From NCBI GenBank assembly GCA_965207455.1, contig CBDBMJ010000001.1:1568001-1632000 (forward strand): a DNA stretch of 64,000 nucleotides. Reading direction: 5' to 3'. The position numbers and the translations under genes were made by a program. The stretch is from Bdellovibrionota bacterium. GTDB taxonomy: Bacteria; Bdellovibrionota; UBA1018; CAIPTA01; JAALKR01. The notes under the pieces were generated by a model. That model was given only the letters and a program-made list of their open reading frames with translations, made no database searches and had not been told where the DNA came from. Shown piece after piece: positions 30,154 through 41,410 of this stretch (its first letter is position 1; every line of letters begins with the position of its first letter).

Positions 30154-32520
30154 TTAATATAAGGGCTTTCCCTTGTCTTTTCCCTGCATAATAATCCCAT
30201 TTTCGATGAGACCCCCAATGAGTGTTGAATTGACATGCACAGTTTTGGAAGATAATTTTTTCTTCAGTACCCGATCCGTTCCGTATAAATATTTAAACAC
30301 GGCTTCAAAGGTTTCCTGTAGGATTTGAATATCGTCATATTTTTTATATTTTTTATCGGGCCAGTGGATAGCTAAAAAGGAGCCAAAACGATCCTGTAGA
30401 TCCAATGTATTTATATCTGCCGTATCGTAGCCGACTAAATGGAAGCAATCTTTTGTTAGGTGGGGTCCATGGTCTCCATTAATGATGATAATGGAATCGC
30501 GGTTACTTTCTAAAATTGTATTGATGTCATTGCGCATTTCAATATTTGCTTTTTTTAACCTGTGATGAAATCTTTCTACTTCATCGGGAAGGCAGGCTCC
30601 AGAGTTTTGGCTATGGTAGGGACCTGTGTGGGTGTGTAGGAATTTGGGTTGTGTTGTTTGTGCCCCCATAATTTTTCTTTTTTTCTGGATCCATTCTTCT
30701 TTGGTGTATTCCTTAAAGTCATCCATAATGTCGAATTTAAACCGTTGTGTTTGCAAGCCCCTGAGTAGTATTTCATGACCTTTTGTGGCTTTTTTGAATT
30801 CCGGGAAAAAATAATCATAGGCATTTTTTGCTTCCAGTACAAAATAATCTCCTAGAACAGCGTACGTTTTGTAGCCTTGTTTTTTTAAGGTGCTTACCGT
30901 TAAGCTATCTCCTGCCATAACTCTTCGATCCTTCACTGATGGCGATCTACTAATATCCAAAACTCCAGCCATTGATACCAATGTGCTCACGCCCAGTGAG
31001 TATGTTTTAGGGTAGATTACAAAATTATTGGATCGCAGGAAATCTTCTTGGTCTTTATTATTGATGCCATATTGAAGCATAATTTGATTCTGTACATAGG
31101 CATCGTAGGTTAATAAATAAATATCTGGTTTCTTTTTGAGTTCTCCTTTCGGTAGAAAGTAGTCGTATGATCGGACTGACGTTTCACTGATGCGGTGGGT
31201 GGCATTTTCCGACCTCATGTACGCATATATGCTATTGACGGAAAAATAAAGCATCGCCAAAAAGAATAGTAAGGATCGGAATTTCGAGCGCAAGTAGAAA
31301 AGAATGGCACTAATGGTGGCAAAAATAGCAAAAGGCAATAAGCGGTCCGGTTTCTCTACCCAATGGAAGGAATGGGAAAAAATGGGTAGGGAAGCATAAA
31401 GGTATAGTAGGGATATACTAAGGGGCACTAATAAGGACACACCCACATAGCGTTGTAAAAAAATGGGAATGATAACCGCAATGATCAAAGCTATGGATAG
31501 GGTAGCGATTAAAAATAGGAAAATTTCTGAAACTTTCAGTATATCTCTATTGTAGATAATATATTGTACTATGGGAGCCATGGGGATCAGTAATAAGGAA
31601 AGGTCTCGCCAACCATAGTTTTGATGGGGTAATTTTATCTCTTGGTTGAGTTTCTGGATTTCATTCCATTTATTTTTATACCGAGCCCATACATAAAAAA
31701 CAAATGCTAGGGCAATGGGTATGGCAAGAAATCTAACCGTGTCTTTTACTAGGCATTGACCAATGAGACCAATTCCCAAAAGATGTTGTATGGATAGTGA
31801 GTAGATAATGATGATGAGTAAGGGAACAACAAATTCTGCTCTCGCAATAAAGGCAGCATTTCTCCAGAGTGATTTGAGTTTTTCCCGTTCTTTTACGAAT
31901 GGGTATTGGCAGATATTTTTTACTAAAAAAATAAAATTATTAGTTGTCCAGTACAGGATTATGCCTGAGGGAGCGTTGTACAGGAGAAAGAAAAAAAGGA
32001 CATTCACAACGCTTGCTTGCAGCCACCGGTGAAAAGAAAAAAATGGCATAAGCAGGGAGGCAAGGAAGTTAATAGACAGCATGAGTGGAGGCAGGACATT
32101 GGTTCGTGGAACTAATTGGTCTGGTGCTCCCAGATCGGGAATAACAGAAAAACTCTGACCCTTGAGGCTTGGCAGGTCCGAGAACAGATAAAAAGCAAGA
32201 ATCAGAAAAGGTATTTGCACAAGCAGGGGAGTAATTCCTAAGATGGAAAAGATTGGATTATAGGAGTAGCGGTTAAACAGGGACTGTTTTCTTAGGAAGA
32301 GTGCCTTGCCTTTATACAGTGATTTTAAATGATCCAGCTGTGGTGAGAGAATTTCATTATAGATGCGTTCCCATGCAGAGAATTTCTCTGCATATCTCAC
32401 AAAAGGATAGGTGATTAGGCTTGTAAGAAACGAAAAGAGTAGAATGGAGAATCCATAACTGCCCGTAATATTTACGATGCCCAGGTATATATGTTCTGCG
32501 CCAGATAGTAGGAAATTCAT
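30154..32520 (-). CDS. Fusion: YidC/Oxa1-like domain + multi-TM region + alkaline-phosphatase/sulfatase (LtaS-like) domain
   Basis: N-terminal ~205 aa align by eye with the YidC core (YGFSI..., NP, PLLVQIP, DLGAPD, LPPLM, PSGIILYWTTNN). C-terminal KPDIYLLTYDAY, STLVSM, HTGPYH, IIINGDHG are alkaline-phosphatase superfamily motifs. Confidence 0.8.
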   Translation of the reverse strand: MNFLLSGAEHIYLGIVNITGSYGFSILLFSFLTSLITYPFVRYAEKFSAWERIYNEILSPQLDHLKSLYKGKALFLRKQSLFNRYSYNPIFSILGITPLLVQIPFLILAFYLFSDLPSLKGQSFSVIPDLGAPDQLVPRTNVLPPLMLSINFLASLLMPFFSFHRWLQASVVNVLFFFLLYNAPSGIILYWTTNNFIFLVKNICQYPFVKEREKLKSLWRNAAFIARAEFVVPLLIIIIYSLSIQHLLGIGLIGQCLVKDTVRFLAIPIALAFVFYVWARYKNKWNEIQKLNQEIKLPHQNYGWRDLSLLLIPMAPIVQYIIYNRDILKVSEIFLFLIATLSIALIIAVIIPIFLQRYVGVSLLVPLSISLLYLYASLPIFSHSFHWVEKPDRLLPFAIFATISAILFYLRSKFRSLLFFLAMLYFSVNSIYAYMRSENATHRISETSVRSYDYFLPKGELKKKPDIYLLTYDAYVQNQIMLQYGINNKDQEDFLRSNNFVIYPKTYSLGVSTLVSMAGVLDISRSPSVKDRRVMAGDSLTVSTLKKQGYKTYAVLGDYFVLEAKNAYDYFFPEFKKATKGHEILLRGLQTQRFKFDIMDDFKEYTKEEWIQKKRKIMGAQTTQPKFLHTHTGPYHSQNSGACLPDEVERFHHRLKKANIEMRNDINTILESNRDSIIIINGDHGPHLTKDCFHLVGYDTADINTLDLQDRFGSFLAIHWPDKKYKKYDDIQILQETFEAVFKYLYGTDRVLKKKLSSKTVHVNSTLIGGLIENGIIMQGKDKGKPLY

Positions 32521-33833
32521 TTGTCGCTCGCCATATTTTTAGATGGTTGTGCTAGGTAATCGGCAATATATTCTGAGGAATTGCCGAGATTTTTAATTGT
32601 TTTTTGTCGGAATTCTTTTAAATCTAGATTCGTATTTTGGAGAAGAGTTTTTTCCACAATTTTCGTTAACGTTTTTATTTCACTTTTTTTAATAAAGCTT
32701 CCTATCTCATGGGTGGCTTGTTCTCCCCATATTTCTGCCAAATCATCTGCCTCAAATAGGAATAAATTTTCCCTAGGTACTTCCAAAGAAATTACAGGTT
32801 TTTCGTATGTGAAGGCATAATCAAACCGTAATGAGGATGTGTCCGATATTAAAAGGCTGGATTTTTGCATAGAATCTCCGGGGGAGATTTCTCTATCCCA
32901 GGTAATATTTTTATATTTTTCTGTTTCCTTCTCACAAGTGCGAATAAAATCAGCCTCGATTTGATAGGAATAGGGATGGGCTCGAATAATAATTTCATAG
33001 CCTGCACGTGCCAGTTCTATTATGAAACCTAGGCCATAGGTCTGTAGGCATCCCTTCTCTCCCCATGAGGATCCCACAAGTAGGGTGTTTTTGTCATAAG
33101 CTAAATTATTTTTCCTGTTTTGATAGAGTTTATCTAAATAGGGTAAGCCCATGGTCACTAATTCTTTTCTTTTGAGGTTTCTTTTTTTCTCTATAGTACG
33201 AATGGCGTTGATCTGGAAATCGCCGACGAGGAGTACGCTATCATAGTGGTCCAAAGAGCCTTTCTTGTAGTAGGAAATATCTGCCACTGAGTGAAAAACA
33301 TGAACGAGGTTTTTTACTTTTGCAGGTCGGTCAAAAGGATAACTTTTTGTCCCAATATTCGGTGACGTGGCTAGCATTACGGGAGCGATGCTCTTGGATA
33401 GTCGTGAAAATCCGAGAATATTTTTTCTTAGCAGCTTGGAGTGCATAAAGGGGCTATCTATTGTTAAGGCTTCATCATGGACGTCGAAAGTAAAATACCG
33501 GAACGAGATTTTCTTTTTTATCAAAGCCGCAATAATGGGTTGGAATGTGTCCCTATATTCCCTACCTTCACCGAATATAATGGGCATGTCCGTATTATAA
33601 AAAATATTTTTACTCCTACCCATTAGATTATAGATAAAAGATTGAACGGAATAAATAAGAGCGCCAAAGATGGATAGTATGGCTGTAACTAGGGCGCTGC
33701 TACTGCCGGGGTCTAGGTAGCCGTATGCTCGGTTGGGAAGAATGAATAGGATGAGAATGGGCCAAGCCAGCAGCGATGCCCTGTGTAAAAACGCCATAGA
33801 TGAGAGAATAAAACAAAAAATATATAAGGTCAA
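32517..33833 (-). CDS. TagF/TarF-like CDP-alcohol:polymer phosphotransferase with signal-peptide-YLDPGS-TM leader
   Basis: VHVFHS, GLPYLD, LLVGSSWG, IRAHPY, LISDTSSLRFDYAF match the CDP-glycerol glycerophosphotransferase family. Stop overlaps the start of the YidC fusion (ATGA). Start may be ATG 33797. Confidence 0.8.
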   Translation of the reverse strand: MTLYIFCFILSSMAFLHRASLLAWPILILFILPNRAYGYLDPGSSSALVTAILSIFGALIYSVQSFIYNLMGRSKNIFYNTDMPIIFGEGREYRDTFQPIIAALIKKKISFRYFTFDVHDEALTIDSPFMHSKLLRKNILGFSRLSKSIAPVMLATSPNIGTKSYPFDRPAKVKNLVHVFHSVADISYYKKGSLDHYDSVLLVGDFQINAIRTIEKKRNLKRKELVTMGLPYLDKLYQNRKNNLAYDKNTLLVGSSWGEKGCLQTYGLGFIIELARAGYEIIIRAHPYSYQIEADFIRTCEKETEKYKNITWDREISPGDSMQKSSLLISDTSSLRFDYAFTYEKPVISLEVPRENLFLFEADDLAEIWGEQATHEIGSFIKKSEIKTLTKIVEKTLLQNTNLDLKEFRQKTIKNLGNSSEYIADYLAQPSKNMASDK

Positions 33834-33897: not shown

Positions 33898-35172
33898 ATG
33901 AGTGATAAAACAGTTTATGTTGGTATGAGCGCAGATTTACTGCATCCAGGGCATATAAATATTTTAAAAATAGCTGCTTCCCATGGAAAGGTGACGGTTG
34001 GGCTTTTAACCGATAAGGCTATCGCTAGTTATAAGCGATTGCCCTATATGGAGTATGAGCAAAGAAAAGCAGTTGTGGAGAGTATTGGTGCTGTTCACCA
34101 AGTAATTCCTCAGTACAGCTTGGACTATACGGAGAACTTGGAGCGTGTTCGTCCCGATTATGTTGTTCATGGTGATGATTGGATGTCTGGCTCGCAACGT
34201 AGGGTTAGGGACAAGGTTATTGAGCAAATAAAACAATGGGGAGGGGAATTAATTGAACCCAAGTATACAGAGGGTATTAATTCAACGAACTTAAATATGA
34301 TCTTGCGTGAGATTGGCACAACACCAGACATACGAAGGAAAAGATTATATCGTTTAATTCAGTCGAAATCGCTTGTGCGAGTTATGGAGGCCCATAACGG
34401 TTTAAGCGCATTAATTGTGGAGAAAACTCGGGTTAAAAAAGAAAATGTGGATCAGGAATTTGATGCCGTATGGGAGAGCAGCCTCACGGATTCTGGATCC
34501 AAGGGGAAACCGGATATTGAGCTTGTGAGTCCCAACGATCGTCTCCAAACCGTGAACGAGATTTTTGAAGTGACCACAAAGCCAATGATATATGATGGTG
34601 GCACAGGTGGTTTTCCTGAGCATTTTGTATTTACGGTGCGTTCTTTGGAGAGGCTTGGAGTTTCCGCTGTTATTATTGGAGATACACTGGGTTTAGGCTC
34701 CACTTTGGGTGCGGAATATAAGCAAGCTCCCACCGAAGATTTTTGTTATAAAATTAGGATGGGTTGCAAGGCATCGATTACCAAGGATTTTATGATTATG
34801 GCAAGAATAGAGAATATTAAAAAAGATATGGGGAGTGCTCTGGATCGAGTCGAGGCTTATATTCATGCTGGAGCCAGTGCCATTATGGTACATTCAGGGG
34901 ATGCGTCTGAGGAAATGAAATTTGCAAAGGAATACCACAAAAAAGGTCATACAGCGCCGCTAGTGTGTATGCCATCCAATTATAGTCATGCTTATGAAGA
35001 GGATCTTATGAAAGCAGGTTTTCAAATTATCATCTATGGAAATCAATTATTGTGTTCCGCATATCCTGCAATGAAGAAGACGGCAGAGCTGATTTTAAAA
35101 AATAATCGTTCTTTGGAGTGTGATGATTTTTGTGCAGACACCAGCGACATTTTTAATTTAATTTCAAGATAG
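33898..35172 (+). CDS. Cytidylyltransferase (HxGH) fused to a phosphoenolpyruvate mutase domain with degenerate catalytic motifs
   Basis: ADLLHPGH and YTEGINST intact. PepM features [30 protein letters not shown] present, but D-x-D reads DGG and EDK-x5-NS reads [10 protein letters not shown]. Confidence 0.85.
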
Positions 35173-35182
35173 CGAGAAATAC

Positions 35183-36310
35183 ATGATAAAAGAATTTATT
35201 GGAAGGGGCAGTGTTCAGGCACTTTTTGATCATATACGATTGAAAAATCACTCTGATATTTTCATCGTCACGGGAAAGAAACCATTTCAAAACACAGGTA
35301 TAAAGGAACTGCTTACATCTTATTTTTCCACCACAAAGTGCCATTTCTTCACGGATTTTTCTGTGGACCCCAAATGGATGGACATGAAGAAAGGGATAGC
35401 TGCTTTTCAGCAAAGTAAGGCTGGAGCAATTATGGCTATCGGTGGAGGCAGTGTGATGGATATGGGCAAATTGATTAAGGCGGGTTCAGTTCATAAAGAA
35501 AATTTTATGGATATTGTGTTGAAGGGTAAGCCTTTGACGAATCCAGGAGTTCCCCTTTATATTGTACCCACAACGGCTGGATCGGGTAGTGAAGCTACGC
35601 ACTTTGCGGTTATCTATATAGAAGGAAAAAAATATTCTCTTGCCCACCCATTTATTTATGCAAATGCTGTTGCTGTTGATTCAGAAATGACAGCCTCAAT
35701 GCCTCTCGCGCTAAGAGCCCAAACCGCCTTTGATGCCCTATCTCAGGCCACAGAATCCTACTGGTCCTGTGGTGCCACAACAGACAGCAGAGTTCATGCA
35801 AAAAAAGCCATGCAACTTATTTTGCCCAATATGGTTGCAGCCGTTAATCAGCCAAACGATGAGAATAGAGGCGCGATGATGGAGGCTGCGCACCTAGCAG
35901 GGAAAGCGATTGATATATCCAAGACAACACTAGCCCATGCCCTGTCCTATCACTTAACTTCTGAATATTCCATTCCCCATGGTCATGCGGTAGCCCTTTG
36001 CCTTGGTAAATGTTTTACTCTTCATGGAAATGCCGAATCTCTTTCACCCCTATATACAAAAAATTCCTTCCAGAAAATCATGGAAGACATATATAAACTG
36101 TATGGTTGCAAAAACGCAAAAGAATGTGAAGAAAAATGGTATCGACTTATGGATGCTTGTCATCTAGAGCGTTCGTTATTGAAAATAGGTCTTAATACAA
36201 AAGAGCTCCAGGGGGTATTTTCTAAAAGTGCGAACCCGGAAAGGTTATCCAATAACCCGGTGAAAGTAATGCCGAGAGATATCCTAACGATGTATGATTT
36301 TTCTTATTAG
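35183..36310 (+). CDS. Iron-containing alcohol dehydrogenase, phosphonoacetaldehyde reductase-like (PhpC/FomC type)
   Basis: GGGSVMD, PTTAGSGSEATHFAV, DALSQATESYWS, AGKAIDISKTT.AHALSY..T....IPHGHAV; 10 nt after the PepM fusion. Confidence 0.82.
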   Translation: MIKEFIGRGSVQALFDHIRLKNHSDIFIVTGKKPFQNTGIKELLTSYFSTTKCHFFTDFSVDPKWMDMKKGIAAFQQSKAGAIMAIGGGSVMDMGKLIKAGSVHKENFMDIVLKGKPLTNPGVPLYIVPTTAGSGSEATHFAVIYIEGKKYSLAHPFIYANAVAVDSEMTASMPLALRAQTAFDALSQATESYWSCGATTDSRVHAKKAMQLILPNMVAAVNQPNDENRGAMMEAAHLAGKAIDISKTTLAHALSYHLTSEYSIPHGHAVALCLGKCFTLHGNAESLSPLYTKNSFQKIMEDIYKLYGCKNAKECEEKWYRLMDACHLERSLLKIGLNTKELQGVFSKSANPERLSNNPVKVMPRDILTMYDFSY

Positions 36311-37339
36311 GATGGGCAGTATATAATAAAGAAAAGCAATAAGCATGTAAGGAATAAAAAGAAATGTGCTGTCCTTATGGAGAATGCTCATCATTATTCT
36401 ATCCATGTAGCCAGGTGTATGTGTTTCTTCTAGTTTTATTTCCTCTGGTTTTATTTTCTTCGCAGCGCTGCAAATTTTTTTGTAAAATTCAAACCATTTA
36501 TTTAATGGAGCATGTTTTACTAAATGAAGGAAAAAGAATCGTATATAGAATAGATGGAGCAGGGTCATGTCTCTCTTGGAGGCTTTGATGCTGTTATAGG
36601 CTTCCTTGGAGAACTCATACGACGGGAAAACATCAAAAGATTGAAGAGAGCGTTTGCTTGTTATGCTGCCTGCATGCCTCCGGTAGTAAAGCAAGGTATG
36701 GTTTATTTTGCATATCTTATTAGAAACAAGAAACATTTTTTTTGCAGGTAGAATATCCTCGCTCATCCTTAGATCAGCAGGAGCTTGTATATTATATTGG
36801 TTCCAAACGGATTTTTTAAAAAGTTTCCAGCATATCGTTATAAAATGAAAAGAATGATAGAAGAAATCGTCAGAGAGGTCTTGGCGACAAAACACTGAGG
36901 GAAGTGTACTAAATTCTTGATTAAATTTTGTAGAGGCTGGGGCAGGCAGTGGCGTATAATTTTTCTGGTCTTTAAATTTTTTATAATCCCCTAAGACAAT
37001 ATCAGCATTATGTTCTACGGCTGCTTTATGGGCTTCTTCTAGGGCGTTGGGAGGAATCAAATCATCCGGGTCGAGGAAGAATAGGTATTCCCCTTGGGCG
37101 TGCGCCACTCCTGAGTTGCGAGCAGCACCCGTGCCCTGGTTTTCTTGGGTTAGGATTTTAATTCGAGGGTCAAGTGCTGCTGCCTCGCGAACAATTGCTT
37201 CAGACTGATCTGGAGATCCATCTATAACGAAGATGGCTTCCCAATTTTCCATGCTTTGATTTTGCACGGAGATCAGGCAATTCTTTAGCCAAGGTTCCAC
37301 ATTATACACGGGCAGGATGATAGAAATACTAGGACCCAT
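36284..37339 (-). CDS. Glycosyltransferase family 2
   Basis: ISIILPVYNVE, IDGSPD, NQGTGAARN, FLDPDD, SEDI, YYRR...SIT. Confidence 0.9.
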   Translation of the reverse strand: MGPSISIILPVYNVEPWLKNCLISVQNQSMENWEAIFVIDGSPDQSEAIVREAAALDPRIKILTQENQGTGAARNSGVAHAQGEYLFFLDPDDLIPPNALEEAHKAAVEHNADIVLGDYKKFKDQKNYTPLPAPASTKFNQEFSTLPSVFCRQDLSDDFFYHSFHFITICWKLFKKSVWNQYNIQAPADLRMSEDILPAKKMFLVSNKICKINHTLLYYRRHAGSITSKRSLQSFDVFPSYEFSKEAYNSIKASKRDMTLLHLFYIRFFFLHLVKHAPLNKWFEFYKKICSAAKKIKPEEIKLEETHTPGYMDRIMMSILHKDSTFLFIPYMLIAFLYYILPILIRKIIHR

Positions 37340-37395
37340 AGCTTGGAGCGTATCAGATTTTTTATTCGAACGGAACCAGAAACAGAGGCATATTG

Positions 37396-38484
37396 TTATT
37401 TATTGAACCATACCCGCAACTGCCTTACCCAAGATGGAGGAAGGTGATAGATGACTTGACTGCGAATCATACTATTGAATGTGAGAATCATGAGGTGTAG
37501 AAATACAATAAAAGATTTTCTTTTCCACTTATGCAAGTTGAGTCCATCTAATTTCTTTTCGGTTTTTGCGTACTCCATTTTTGCAATTAGTGGGGCGCAT
37601 TGGGTATAAAAGTGCCACCAGTCTTTGCGAGGGATTACGAACAGTATGGAGAACCTAAAGGAGCGAATAAAAAATTTCTCCATCTCAAGGCGGAGTGTTT
37701 TCCAGTGCGGTATGGATTGAAAAGATTCCATGGCCAGTGGATAGGCTCTTAAAATTTCAAGTGATTTTTTTGTTCGTTGGCCGGTATTACTATTGTATCT
37801 TCGGCGATACAAAACAGTTACAAATGGGCAAGAGACAATAATTTTACTGGAATGGAAGAATTTTTTCACTGGGATAATATCTTCTGCCATTAATAGGTTT
37901 TCAGGAACATGGCAATTCAGCTCTGCCCATAATTGTCTTCGGAACAATTTTCCCCAGCACGTTATGGTAAAACTACTTAGGATTAATTTTTCATATTTGT
38001 CTTTGAGCGTAGTCCAATCCAACGTTTCTGTTTCTTTGGGAAAAAAATTAAGAAAGGAATTTTGTAATGGATAGTTTTTATTTGCATGGGGTTTTTCTTT
38101 TTTATCTATAAAGGTATGGAAATCTCCAATCACCATATCAGCTCCGTGTGACTGGGCTGCTTGGTATAGATTTTCTAAGGCGTTATTGGCAAGCACATCA
38201 TCGGAGTCTAAAAAGCACAGGAACTCTCCCCCAGCATGTTGGCATCCCGTATTGCGAGCAGCTCCTAGACCCATATTTTTTGTATGCTCTAGGATTGTAT
38301 ATCTCTGGTCTGCCCCAGCGTAGGACTCCATGATTTCTTTAGAGGCATCTTGAGAGCAGTCATTTATCAGAATGGCTTCCCAGTCCTGAAAGCTTTGATT
38401 TTGCACGGAGCTTAGGCAATCATTTAGCCAAGGTTCCACATTAAATACGGGAATGATCAGGCTAATTTTGCAGGTTGATGGCAT
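37396..38484 (-). CDS. Glycosyltransferase family 2 (paralog of neighbour)
   Basis: ISLIIPVFNVE, NDCSQD, NMGLGAARN, FLDSDD, AEDI. Start at ATG 38484 after AAGGA. Confidence 0.9.
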   Translation of the reverse strand: MPSTCKISLIIPVFNVEPWLNDCLSSVQNQSFQDWEAILINDCSQDASKEIMESYAGADQRYTILEHTKNMGLGAARNTGCQHAGGEFLCFLDSDDVLANNALENLYQAAQSHGADMVIGDFHTFIDKKEKPHANKNYPLQNSFLNFFPKETETLDWTTLKDKYEKLILSSFTITCWGKLFRRQLWAELNCHVPENLLMAEDIIPVKKFFHSSKIIVSCPFVTVLYRRRYNSNTGQRTKKSLEILRAYPLAMESFQSIPHWKTLRLEMEKFFIRSFRFSILFVIPRKDWWHFYTQCAPLIAKMEYAKTEKKLDGLNLHKWKRKSFIVFLHLMILTFNSMIRSQVIYHLPPSWVRQLRVWFNK

Positions 38485-38536
38485 GGTATGTTCCTTGCTT
38501 ACTATAGTGTATGGGCGTAATCCAGTCAAGTGCCTG

Positions 38537-41410
38537 TTACAGGTCAAATTTTGACTTGTTCGGAATGAAAATTGTCTTTACTCGTTTATCCATAAATACT
38601 TTATCTTTGGTCAGTAACTCCATAAAAGAGTCTTCCTCTAGGTGGAGTGTGTAGTTCACATGATAGTTTATATTTTTTATTTTCACATAACGTTTCACAA
38701 GTGGATACAATTCTCTATTAAAAGACAACGCCCGCAGGTTTGCTGTTTTCATTTTCTGGGATATTTTTGCGCCCCATTTTTGAGCCTCGGATTTAGAGAG
38801 TTTCTTTTCCATTGGCAGAAGATGGCGGGACACAGACCAGCCTTTTTTTTGTATTTTTTTGAGAATGGGCATAGTTAATGAGAATACAAGGATGGATTTA
38901 TTTTTTATTTTAAATTTTTTATCAATGCCATCCAATTGCTTTAGGATTTTTTTGTAATTATGTTCATTTAAATTTTTCAATTCCAAAACCAACCGCTGTA
39001 TTTTTTTGTGTGAAATTTTGCTGAGATAATTTTCTAGCTTCAAACCTAGGGAATTAGCATTTTCTCCAAGATGAAGATTTCCATCCTTTGCAAGCCAAAG
39101 GTTTAGCCCAAAAGATCGGAAGCCATTATTCCATGCTTCTTTTAGCTTTCCCAGTGAGTTTACTTTACTTAAAAAAACTCGGTTGGATTGCTTGGATTGT
39201 ACAAGGTCCATCGTATTTTTCCTTGTCCAGTAAATAGCATTATCACTATCTGTATATTTTTTCTTTCTACGCAAGACGTAGGCTTCACTTGGTTTTAGCT
39301 CATAGTTTGAGGAAGATAAATCGTATTTAGAGTGATAGCGTTTTGTTTTTATATTGAAAATTCCGATTAAAGTATCGTAGAGAAAACCGTTGGAATACAG
39401 CGATTGGGTGTTATTTAATAATGCTTGGAATTTATTTGGGTATCGTTTTTTGTATTTGGGGGAAAACCACGCAAGCATGGGGATTTCTGTCATCTCGTAG
39501 GTGAAACTTCCAGAATTATGCCCCAGATTATTAAAAATATCCTCACTGTGATCGGAAATATAGAGAAAACCAGTAACACCACCTTTCTTTTGTACTATTT
39601 TTAAAAGAGAGCTAACCACATAATCATTATAGAGTACGCTGTTATCATAGCAATTTATATTCTCCCAGTTGAATTTTTTTGAATCGCTTGAAATTGTTGA
39701 ACCAAAATTTCCTGGCTTTAAGCTGCCCGTAAATAGAGGAAACTCATTTTTCGGATATCTTGCACAATAATGTGAATGACTGCCCATTAGGTGCACAAAA
39801 ATTATGCGGCTCTTCTTGGTTTTCTCCATTAACACATTTTCCACTTCTTTAATCATTCCTCCATCATATTTATCCGCTCGTACTCTTTTCCCGATTGTTG
39901 AGTTTATACTCACCACATTTTTTGCCTCTAAGCCAATGGCAGCAGCCATATTATCCCAAGGACCCATTAAATTCTGATTGGAAATCCAATGGGTTTCTGC
40001 ATGGGATTTATTTATTATATTTATGATAGAGGGTGACTGGTGATATTTTTTTTCGTTTAATTGGTTTGCCTCTGTTAATGCCAAGCTAAGAGTTGCACCT
40101 GTATGGGTGTGGCTGGAATAAGCATTTTGGAATACAATTAAATTTTCCATTTTTGACAAATTCGGTGTTGTTTCCCGTGCGTAACCATAAAGACCCATAT
40201 GCTGTTTATTTAATGATTCGCCAATTACCACAATATAGATTTCATCTTCCTCAGTCTTGCTTGCAGTAATGTCAACTCCCTTTGTTCGTGATGATTGGAA
40301 TTTTCTAAATAATATTAGTTGACGGGTATACCGGTAAGAACTCATTATAATGAGTTCTGGAATTTTAGGGTGCTTGAGTTGAGCCAGACCTATGGTAAAT
40401 GTGATAAGTATTAGAACTATAAGGTAAGAAGCCTTTATTTCCACACCCTTCATTTTCTTTTGTTTCCATAGCAGCGCTATAAAAATAGCTGATATAAGGC
40501 TTGCAATAAGTCCCCATTGGAGAGGAATAAAACTAAGAGCATGCTCCCATACCTCCTTATAATTAGATTGGAGTAATGCAACCACAGTATGCCTATCAAT
40601 GCTTGCCCCATAATTTATGGTGTATGCTATGAACAATGCCGGCACAACGTATGCTGCAAAAAATACGATATGAAGGCAAGCTGAAAGAACTTTAAATCTC
40701 AAGGATTGTGAGGATTTTTGCTGAAAAAGAATAAATAAAAATGTAAAGCCCATTGCTAGGGAGGTATAAATAATTGCCGTTCGAAGATCTTGCGCTCCCC
40801 AGTTGATTTTTTCTGCCAGTAACGATAATAGAAATATAAAATAGGAATTTATAAAAATTACGGCATAGCCCTTAGTAAATAAAAAAATGAAAAGTATGAA
40901 CCATAAAAATACTGGTATACAAGAATATAGAAAGTGCCATCTATCTTTGATTTTTATTCGAAGATCTGCTCGATGGAAGAAAGAATTACCATGCCCAGTT
41001 GCAATTATCTCAATTTCATCACCTGTGCGAACATCTAAGAATAACTGACTCTTTGCCGTTACTAGGACTTTTTGAATTATTTTCCCATTCTTCTTAATAC
41101 GAAAATCTATATTTCCAGTACTTGAGGCTGGTGCAATGGAAAAATTGAATCGAATATTTGCTGGCTGGAGAAATACAATACGTCCAGTGGCAGAATTTTT
41201 TGTACTTATTTGGATAAAAAAATAGCTATCTGTAACTTTTTTAAATAAAGCTTCTTGGCTTGTGCTTACGGTGTTAAATTTGTAGTAATCTTTATTTATA
41301 TCCTGATAGCCATCTCCCATGGGAGCTAGAATGAAGTACGTCGCAAATATACTGATAATCCCTAAGAATAGAAGAATTTTTTTTCTTTTATTGTCCAGCA
41401 AGTGTTTCAT
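38537..41410 (-). CDS. Phosphoethanolamine-transferase family (EptA/CptA-like) with extra N- and C-terminal domains
   Basis: TM block, then VIGES, YGYARETTP, HT (Thr nucleophile), VHLMGSH, YDNSVLYND, SDHSE, GH; ~215-aa C-terminal extension. Confidence 0.85.
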   Translation of the reverse strand: MKHLLDNKRKKILLFLGIISIFATYFILAPMGDGYQDINKDYYKFNTVSTSQEALFKKVTDSYFFIQISTKNSATGRIVFLQPANIRFNFSIAPASSTGNIDFRIKKNGKIIQKVLVTAKSQLFLDVRTGDEIEIIATGHGNSFFHRADLRIKIKDRWHFLYSCIPVFLWFILFIFLFTKGYAVIFINSYFIFLLSLLAEKINWGAQDLRTAIIYTSLAMGFTFLFILFQQKSSQSLRFKVLSACLHIVFFAAYVVPALFIAYTINYGASIDRHTVVALLQSNYKEVWEHALSFIPLQWGLIASLISAIFIALLWKQKKMKGVEIKASYLIVLILITFTIGLAQLKHPKIPELIIMSSYRYTRQLILFRKFQSSRTKGVDITASKTEEDEIYIVVIGESLNKQHMGLYGYARETTPNLSKMENLIVFQNAYSSHTHTGATLSLALTEANQLNEKKYHQSPSIINIINKSHAETHWISNQNLMGPWDNMAAAIGLEAKNVVSINSTIGKRVRADKYDGGMIKEVENVLMEKTKKSRIIFVHLMGSHSHYCARYPKNEFPLFTGSLKPGNFGSTISSDSKKFNWENINCYDNSVLYNDYVVSSLLKIVQKKGGVTGFLYISDHSEDIFNNLGHNSGSFTYEMTEIPMLAWFSPKYKKRYPNKFQALLNNTQSLYSNGFLYDTLIGIFNIKTKRYHSKYDLSSSNYELKPSEAYVLRRKKKYTDSDNAIYWTRKNTMDLVQSKQSNRVFLSKVNSLGKLKEAWNNGFRSFGLNLWLAKDGNLHLGENANSLGLKLENYLSKISHKKIQRLVLELKNLNEHNYKKILKQLDGIDKKFKIKNKSILVFSLTMPILKKIQKKGWSVSRHLLPMEKKLSKSEAQKWGAKISQKMKTANLRALSFNRELYPLVKRYVKIKNINYHVNYTLHLEEDSFMELLTKDKVFMDKRVKTIFIPNKSKFDL

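Follow-up and report, generated by a model that had tools for sequence, protein, structure and literature searches.

Why should a phosphotransferase of the TagF type, whose catalytic domain is predicted to be cytoplasmic, begin with a signal-peptide-like segment, the motif YLDPGSSS and a transmembrane (TM) helix? The question is raised by a gene on the reverse strand of a 64,000-nucleotide stretch of DNA, here called the window, from the genome of a Bdellovibrionota bacterium (assembly GCA_965207455.1, contig CBDBMJ010000001.1, positions 1,568,001 to 1,632,000). A first reading made from the letters of this stretch (the sequence-only reading) had suggested that the N-terminal leader is a possible peptide carrier, in which cleavage exposes a Tyr/Ser-rich segment that could act as a covalent shuttle or a docking element. 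Our analysis showed that the conservation of the motif far exceeds chance, and that the leader in the window is the fused version of a microprotein that is widespread, lacks a curated family, is predicted to cross the membrane once and is commoner in the free form. As to its role, we tentatively propose, with somewhat less than even confidence, a non-covalent membrane subunit that would couple a cytoplasmic loader to a YidC-like/periplasmic transferase.

Anatomy and distribution of the leader module

The open frame of the gene spans 32517..33833 on the reverse strand and counts 438 codons from the TTG at 33833. The ATG at 33797 is the likelier start, because P0002, the closest homologue (83% identical), begins with the same MAFLHR. 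The leader consists of ILILFILPNRAYG, then YLDPGSSS, then ALVTAILSIFGALIYS. The signal-peptidase-type site, the motif, one TM helix and the TagF-like domain that the sequence-only reading had described were all found in the sequence, and both its coordinates for the motif and the peptide that it quoted proved exact by codon positions (Table 1). The gene call of the source itself, P0001 (368 aa), starts at a Met past the helix, and therefore the signal peptide, the motif and the helix are omitted from it. Automatic annotation probably misses the leader module often.

The search for homologues of the TagF-like protein returned 209 proteins at E ≤ 1e-3, of which the best 120 were inspected. Loss of the motif in homologues, which had been named as an outcome that would count against the carrier, was not what we found: Y[LI]DP[GAS][ST][GS]x was present at the same N-terminal place in 117 of these 120 proteins, and the three without it were N-truncated gene calls, P0001 among them. 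The residues Y, D and P are invariant in an alignment of 35 rows sharing 38-82% identity with the window protein, and Y, D, P and G are invariant across 19 leaders taken from fused and free forms. The homologues belong to Alteromonadaceae, Colwellia, Vibrio, Cloacimonadota, Lentisphaerae/Victivallales, Akkermansia, Kiritimatiellia and Thermodesulfobacteriota.

In L031-L036, the six loci that are most distant, any TagF-like gene aligns only from about residue 85, and the leader is encoded instead by a tiny separate open reading frame (ORF) adjoining it, which in L031 is a called protein of 69 aa (P0167). A leader profile of 41 columns (alignment A3), built from the 19 leaders, gave 1268 matches at E ≤ 1 among proteins of 22-72 aa, with the motif in 120 of 120 among the best listed. 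Against 1.84 billion cluster representatives (50% identity), the same profile gave 6172 matches at E ≤ 1e-3, 120 of these at E ≤ 1e-10; the median length was 80 aa in 146 of the best 150, and only a few of these 150 had the length of a TagF protein. These separate ORFs and small-protein matches bear out the statement of the sequence-only reading that very small ORFs made up of the motif and a TM helix turn up repeatedly, on their own, in loci for glycan modification. The window leader itself matched the profile with 69 bits (E 1.5e-18) in a search of its own genome. Neither Pfam-A nor NCBIfam was found to hold a model for the module, a sequence-profile search of the PDB with the leader gave only chance-level matches (E > 1), and a search of the ESM Atlas gave unnamed clusters only.

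Some members depart from the usual form. The protein P0270 (161 aa) carries two tandem copies of the module, seen as two profile stretches, and the motif, or cap, of the first copy is degenerate (YLDPSAGS). A variant with the same cap and a different helix pattern was present on two archaeal contigs, L045 (a Woesearchaeota metagenome-assembled genome, MAG) and L114 (a Micrarchaeota MAG), where its neighbour is sulfatase-like and the flanks examined contain no YidC-like gene.

The anatomy of the module was counted in 383 members, comprising 117 TagF-fused proteins and 266 free or representative matches. The residue directly before the motif (-1) is Ala in 363 and Gly in 11 of them, residue -3 is A, V, L, S, I or T, and residue -2 is usually Y, F or H. 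A looser regular expression (F/W/H admitted for Y; E/G/N for D) returned only Y and D. A hydrophobic core with small residues at -1 and -3 lies upstream in 310 of the 383, which fits a Sec signal peptide with a signal peptidase I site, and the window protein has, by its sequence, the n-, h- and c-regions and the -3/-1 residues of such a peptide. Cleavage would accordingly be expected at A-x-A or A-x-G before the Tyr. However, the free N-terminal Tyr on which the sequence-only reading had built cannot be a universal requirement, since 57 of the 383 members have 12 residues or fewer upstream of the motif and no signal peptide; at L008, L011 and L016, the frame is closed by a stop codon 12-14 codons upstream, too near for a signal peptide to fit. 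These short forms still keep Ala at -1, and the conserved unit is therefore A-Y-x-D-P-G-S/T-G-S/N, in which L, I or V follows the Tyr.

Behind the cap, the geometry is equally strict. The first K/R stands exactly 17 residues past the motif in 373 of the 383 members. The positional profile revealed small residues conserved at module positions 9, 13, 16 and 20, on one face of the helix, and a cytoplasmic block with K/R at 26 (0.97-0.98), aromatic residues at 28-29, Y at 30 (0.86-0.90) and K/R at 31. The small-residue face together with the conserved K26 and Y30 would fit specific helix packing with two functional ends. The window protein agrees with the family in helix length and keeps the Tyr in SFIY, yet its residue 52 (33644-33642) is Gln, as in P0002, in place of the K/R found in 97-98% of the family. 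The helix is probably oriented N-out and C-in, so that the cap would lie on the periplasmic face of the membrane, beside the sulfatase-like domain, and the TagF-like domain would be cytoplasmic. This orientation is suggested by a signal peptide that looks cleavable, by the basic residues behind the helix, by a catalytic domain that uses a nucleotide, and by the order of the parts in P0438 (described below).

The catalytic part of the protein was assigned by profile and by structure. Pfam Glyphos_transf (PF04464, the TagF family) matched residues 212-349 with 28.9 bits (cut-off 22.1), and the residues H166, H169, H274, D183, D186, R272 and others are invariant in the homologue alignment A1. The AlphaFold2 (AF2) model of the window protein has a predicted local distance difference test score (pLDDT) of 89 and a helix spanning residues 30-59; its top Foldseek structure was TagF 3L7M (E 6.5e-12), with further matches to TagF 3L7I (E about 1e-11, like 3L7M) and to TarL 8VA1. 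The likeness to the cytidine diphosphate (CDP)-alditol phosphotransferases TagF and TarL (3L7I-M, 8VA1) thus lies in Pfam and fold matches at only 12-15% identity, whereas the window protein differs from them in its N-terminal leader module and in its likely donor, which, judged from the neighbouring genes, is a cytidine monophosphate (CMP)-phosphonate.

Partner genes and the proposed role

The gene downstream of the TagF-like gene encodes a protein with three parts: a YidC-like domain of five TM segments (residues 22-202), a further TM bundle, and a periplasmic domain resembling the sulfatase/alkaline-phosphatase superfamily. The first part matched Pfam 60KD_IMP (PF02096) with 64.7 bits against a cut-off of 35, and NCBIfam YidC models match it too. 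The match to Pfam Sulfatase (PF00884), 22.7 bits, lies under the cut-off of 25; among the 62 homologues found, some have a precomputed PF00884 match, and GDHGP-type blocks are conserved in the consensus of alignment A4. A search of the genome gave 69.4 bits for the window YidC-like copy and 198.9 bits for a housekeeping YidC elsewhere (contig C3), and the window copy is therefore accessory.

Gene linkage was analysed in two sets of loci. The homology-seeded loci were obtained with an 8-row TagF-like alignment, and in 24 of the 29 loci L002-L030 tblastn placed the YidC/sulfatase protein beside the TagF-like gene. Among the five without it (L016, L020, L025, L026 and L030), L016 and L020 lie on contigs shorter than 4 kb, and the contigs of L025 and L026 end less than 500 bases downstream of the TagF-like gene. 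The motif-seeded loci were found by a DNA pattern of the motif with Ala codons fixed on both sides, so that they represent only the A-Y...G-S/T-A subset. This yielded at least 78 new loci with flanks; the regular expression matched within an ORF in 74 of 78 (all except L054, L064, L067 and L112), and a hydrophobic helix follows the motif in 69 of these 74, the remaining five (L043, L080, L082, L094 and L105) being chance-like. Six of the 69 coincide with homology-seeded places. The Pfam scan covered the neighbours of 17 of 35 free loci and five ORFs of the fused family, while the other loci were classed by home-made hidden Markov models (HMMs) built from 16 YidC-like, 15 TagF-like and 7 sulfatase-like sequences. 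Pfam agreed with the HMM assignments for the neighbours of the 17 free loci and for L031-L036, and the thin sulfatase HMM probably undercounts sulfatase-like neighbours.

The motif-seeded set contains 20 fused copies, which split into two TagF-like subfamilies. Within 5 kb, all 20 have a TagF-like gene (the ORF itself) and a YidC-like gene, and 17 have a sulfatase-like gene. For the 49 free copies of the motif-seeded set, the corresponding numbers within 5 kb are 30 (TagF-like), 34 (YidC-like) and 26 (sulfatase-like), and for the 27 free copies with at least 4.5 kb on both sides they are 19, 21 and 16. A YidC-like or sulfatase-like gene accompanies 26 of these 27 full-flank copies, and none of them lacks all three types. 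YidC-like genes are the most frequent neighbours, yet they are not universal. Profile building and neighbourhood mapping had been suggested by the sequence-only reading as a check, and the YidC-like gene near 20 of 20 fused and 21 of 27 full-flank free copies fits its view of a functional tie between the leader and the YidC-like protein next to it; the natural fusions, both in the window and in P0438, point to the same link.

These fusions join the parts in different combinations. The leader is fused to a TagF-like domain in the window and in many other proteins, and a YidC-like part to a sulfatase-like part in the window and in 18 listed homologues. The metagenomic protein P0438 (1035 aa) unites in one chain a short-form leader, a TagF-like part, a TM bundle and a sulfatase-like part, with no YidC-like part. 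The existence of a form fused to the TagF-like enzyme argues strongly that the microprotein acts together with it.

The genes that would provide the transferred group differ from locus to locus. In the window, the divergent neighbour of the TagF-like gene is a cytidylyltransferase-like domain fused to a phosphoenolpyruvate (PEP) mutase, which would make and CMP-activate a phosphonate cargo; its presence beside the TagF-like gene makes a CMP-phosphonate the likely donor of the TagF-like domain. According to PMC6697681, a PF01467 fusion occurs in 23.6% of PEP mutases, with Fom1 as an example that cytidylylates hydroxyethylphosphonate. The following gene, an Fe-dependent alcohol dehydrogenase (Fe-ADH), has Phn_Fe-ADH, the phosphonate-pathway PsrA model, as its best NCBIfam match (156 bits, under the cut-off of 423.7), and is a candidate phosphonoacetaldehyde reductase yielding 2-hydroxyethylphosphonate. 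Genes of the phosphonate type were likewise present at L056, where a thiamine pyrophosphate (TPP) enzyme and an Fe-ADH stand beside a free microprotein. At L034, L035, L040, L051, L066 and L072 the neighbours are of the phosphoramidate type, namely PPDK_N/PEP-utilizer proteins, C26-type amidotransferases and nucleoside triphosphate (NTP) transferases. The best NCBIfam match of the L034 amidotransferase was gamma-glutamyl-CDP-amidate hydrolase (135.6 bits, under the cut-off of 250), and we take this gene set to resemble the Campylobacter O-methyl phosphoramidate genes Cj1416-1418. Other loci have methyltransferases or NoeA-like methyltransferase proteins. The module is constant, whereas the predicted head-group chemistry varies between loci.

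In the mechanism that we propose tentatively, the helix of the leader would pack, without a covalent bond, on the TM region of the YidC-like/sulfatase-like protein encoded by the adjoining gene. This packing would link the cytoplasmic enzyme, which uses a CMP-activated head group, to the periplasmic transferase of the alkaline-phosphatase type, and the combined action of the four modules would carry a phosphonyl group from a cytoplasmic cytidine nucleotide to an acceptor in the envelope. The cargo in the window would probably be 2-hydroxyethyl- or 2-aminoethylphosphonate, and the invariant Tyr/Asp/Ser cap may help to position or gate a membrane-bound intermediate. Specific packing is suggested by several features: one face of the helix carries small residues, its length is exactly 17 residues, both ends are conserved, and the fusions and gene linkage agree with it. 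Which protein the helix docks on, and in which direction the group moves, is our reading of that evidence.

The contact between cap and groove was considered at residue level. At a position in the first core helix of the YidC-like domain (residue about 33), the housekeeping YidC has Lys, and 13 of 15 accessory YidC-like proteins from free-microprotein loci have R/K, a basic residue that we take to be the groove Arg of YidC. The window protein has Ser at this position, and in the subfamily of YidC fused to sulfatase K/R occurs in 0 of 19 members (S/T/A/N/F instead). A general docking contact between the Asp of the cap and the groove Arg was dropped, as the YidC subfamily of the window lacks the basic residue. 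Complex prediction for the 788-aa protein (A4, 40 rows) with the 41-aa leader (A3, 19 rows) gave 0.04 and 0.01 against a mark of 0.32, without controls, and this outcome weighs on neither side of the binding question.

Several points weigh against the proposed packing role. Docking is deduced from sequence and gene linkage. The 383 members were chosen by a profile or regular expression that contains the motif, so that the apparent invariance is inflated. With 0 of 19 basic residues in the YidC/sulfatase subfamily, a simple Asp-Arg groove contact cannot be general. Of the 27 free copies with full flanks, 6 lack a YidC-like gene and 11 a sulfatase-like gene within 5 kb, so that none of the membrane partners is universal in the motif-seeded sample. 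Moreover, the near-invariant Y, D and S/T exceed the needs of a packing helix and would suit chemistry at the cap.

Alternative explanations and known systems

Such chemistry is the core of the alternative that survives best, the covalent shuttle of the sequence-only reading, although we consider it unlikely. The Tyr or a Ser/Thr of the cap would be esterified with a phosphonyl, phosphoramidyl or methyl-phosphoryl group, and the cap would serve as a membrane-anchored donor for the periplasmic transferase, much as the Tyr of DltX does for D-alanine, the YidC-like groove letting the tail reach the loader. As the loader is cytoplasmic and the cap periplasmic, a shuttle of the DltX kind needs an extra access route across the membrane; the YidC-like gene is missing near the 6 of 27 full-flank free copies mentioned above, and a TagF-like enzyme has its active site in the cleft of a soluble GT-B fold, whereas an MBOAT has a membrane funnel. 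The covalent shuttle would account well for near-invariant Y, D and S/T at the membrane surface and for a cap that stays constant while head-group genes vary, as expected if it meets a constant phosphorus centre. Tyr would be a good leaving group for a nucleophile of the EptA/LtaS type, and the donor of EptA and LtaS is a phospholipid. The loaders all form phospho-esters on hydroxyls, whether they are TagF-like or are NoeA-like kinase-methyltransferases (PMC9758233), and the dichotomy of free and fused forms is shared with the DltX 'acyl shuttle' motif (PMC12148441).

A more specific version, in which the cap receives a phosphoryl or phosphonyl group on the cytoplasm-accessible side, in the hydrophilic groove of the dedicated YidC paralogue, and delivers it to the periplasmic transferase, Tyr leaving like the diacylglycerol of a phospholipid donor, is if anything slightly more doubtful. 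If a shuttle of this kind were true, the DltX principle would extend from acyl to phosphorus groups, and a YidC-family protein would have a role other than protein insertion. A sacrificial carrier, loaded before insertion and used once, was also considered and was judged unlikely, as the fused forms would spend a 426-aa enzyme each time.

The analogy with DltX, which the sequence-only reading had drawn, stands for the architecture (a Tyr at the outer end of the helix, free or fused form) and fails for family membership. In PMC12148441, DltX is described as a microprotein whose helix bears an invariant Tyr at its outer end and which shuttles a group between two active sites, and its motif is free in the Dlt system and fused elsewhere to MBOAT proteins such as PatA. 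The likeness to the leader module extends over the tiny single-pass protein, the Tyr at the extracytoplasmic end, the free or enzyme-fused occurrence, and a group made in the cytoplasm and passed to an envelope polymer. DltX, in the same source, carries FXYXXF at its extracellular C-terminus and works with MBOAT and SGNH partners through an acyl ester in teichoic-acid D-alanylation, whereas the leader module has A-Y-x-D-P-G-S/T-G-S at its (mature) N-terminus, with TagF-like/NoeA-like, YidC-like and sulfatase-like partners and a predicted phosphorus head group. The motif, the protein end and the partner enzymes all differ, and the leader is therefore not a member of the DltX family.

It is also improbable, and distinctly more so than the covalent shuttle, that the module is an insertion signal only, the cap and the short helix making the accessory YidC-like protein insert an N-out anchor that has no later role. 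M13 procoat and Pf3 coat are insertion clients of YidC only, being phage coat proteins that use the housekeeping YidC. The two natural forms of the module resemble these clients, the 310 of 383 members with a signal peptide the procoat type (signal peptide, short acidic periplasmic stretch, helix, basic tail) and the 57 short forms the Pf3 type (short N-tail, helix), and the YidC-like neighbour in nine of ten fused forms without a signal peptide agrees with this. Unlike procoat and Pf3, the leader module is chromosomal, with an invariant cap, a dedicated YidC paralogue and a place in envelope-modification loci. An insertion signal would leave thousands of free microproteins without a purpose, and the conserved K-x-aromatic-aromatic-Y-K/R end and the exact 17-residue spacing without an explanation, in a genome that already has a housekeeping YidC. 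Finally, a generic membrane anchor with a motif kept only by common descent is very improbable: TagF-type enzymes need membrane association and one N-terminal helix suffices for that, but many phyla retain the invariant cap even where overall identity is down to 40-50%, the spacing is fixed, the partners are conserved and the module also lives as a free gene.

The non-covalent coupling subunit would place the locus close to the known three-part systems, which consist of a cytoplasmic loader, a flippase and a periplasmic transferase of the EptA/LtaS type with a membrane-anchored phosphodiester donor. Like them, the locus in the window pairs an enzyme for a nucleotide-activated group with a polytopic membrane protein whose periplasmic domain is predicted to have the sulfatase fold, and glycosyltransferase genes belong to the same operon. 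To our knowledge, no known three-part system includes a YidC-family domain or a conserved microprotein.

The closest described neighbourhood is that of the NoeA/NoeB-like genes Lani_1193-1195 (PMC9758233), where the small and the alkaline-phosphatase-fold neighbours of the NoeA-like kinase-methyltransferase are reported as conserved and no role is assigned to them. There the microprotein gene is free, whereas in the window the leader is TagF-fused and stands with a YidC-like/sulfatase-like fusion and phosphonate genes. The window contributes a fused form, cargo of the phosphonate type, members devoid of a signal peptide, the triple fusion and a helix geometry fixed at 17 residues. A literature search for the motif strings found no publication, and one for YidC combined with phosphonate, phosphoramidate or glycerophosphotransferase found nothing on such a system among the papers listed. 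A term search for YidC, glycerophosphotransferase and TagF found none of them in the accessible text of PMC6697681, PMC8942020 and PMC8931226.

How bacteria fix phosphonates to surfaces after nucleotide activation is an acknowledged gap, and the later 'phosphonyl tailoring' steps are called enigmatic in the abstract of PMC6697681. This locus and several thousand related ones point to a four-part machine composed of a loader, a microprotein or leader, an accessory YidC-family protein and a periplasmic transferase of the alkaline-phosphatase type, which would serve phosphonate, phosphoramidate and methyl-phosphate head groups. The microprotein is very common, as its 6172 representatives indicate, yet it is without a Pfam or NCBIfam model and is often overlooked by gene callers. 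Since fused and free forms, with or without signal peptide, occur naturally, constructs are at hand for the question whether a YidC paralogue has been recruited to the export of small groups, and likewise whether a second 'shuttle microprotein' principle exists beside DltX.

Features of the locus and the surrounding region

The coordinates of the features are collected in Table 1.

Table 1. Positions, within the window, of the leader-bearing gene, its parts and the genes next to it.
Feature	Position	Strand	Remarks
TagF-like phosphotransferase gene	32517..33797	-	426 aa with leader; stop codon 32517-32519
Signal-peptide-like segment, residues 1-26	33720..33797	-	MAFLHR n-region, hydrophobic core, NRAYG; A at -3, G at -1
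YLDPGSSS cap motif, residues 27-34	33696..33719	-	Tyr codon 33719-33717, last Ser codon 33698-33696
Hydrophobic helix ALVTAILSIFGALIYSV, residues 35-51	33645..33695	-	17 residues; face of small residues
Predicted cytoplasmic juxtamembrane stretch QSFIYNLMGRSK, residues 52-63	33609..33644	-	Family pattern K-x-aromatic-aromatic-Y-K/R
TagF-like catalytic domain, residues about 72-426	32520..33584	-	GT-B fold; Pfam and AF2/Foldseek
YidC-like/sulfatase-like fusion protein	30154..32520	-	788 aa; downstream, 4-nt overlap with the TagF-like gene
Cytidylyltransferase-like/PEP mutase fusion	33898..35172	+	Divergent neighbour; Pfam CTP_transf_like 47 bits, PEP_mutase 153 bits; TIGR02320 289.7 bits
Fe-dependent alcohol dehydrogenase	35183..36310	+	Pfam Fe-ADH 116 bits

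A promoter-like element, TTGACC-17-TATTCT, lies at 33805-33833 on the reverse strand and ends 8 nt ahead of the ATG at 33797; the resemblance is a consensus match only. Between this element and the ATG there is no obvious Shine-Dalgarno sequence, and the 5' leader of the transcript may therefore be very short or absent.

The search of the window revealed no gene for a phosphonopyruvate decarboxylase. A second phosphonate cluster lies about 900 kb off (L153, C1:683159-687268) and contains a fusion of PEP mutase with NTP_transf_3, a class-V aminotransferase and a phosphonopyruvate decarboxylase that matched TIGR03297 over its cut-off (395.9 bits). As the window cluster is without a decarboxylase, it may rely on this second cluster.

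Upstream on the strand of the TagF-like gene (36284-41410, reverse strand) there are two genes for family 2 (GT2) glycosyltransferases with hydrophobic C-termini. Beyond them lies a gene for a CptA/EptA-like phosphoethanolamine transferase of 957 aa, which continues for about 250 residues beyond its sulfatase domain. The GT2 genes and the CptA/EptA-like gene likely belong to the same envelope-modification region.

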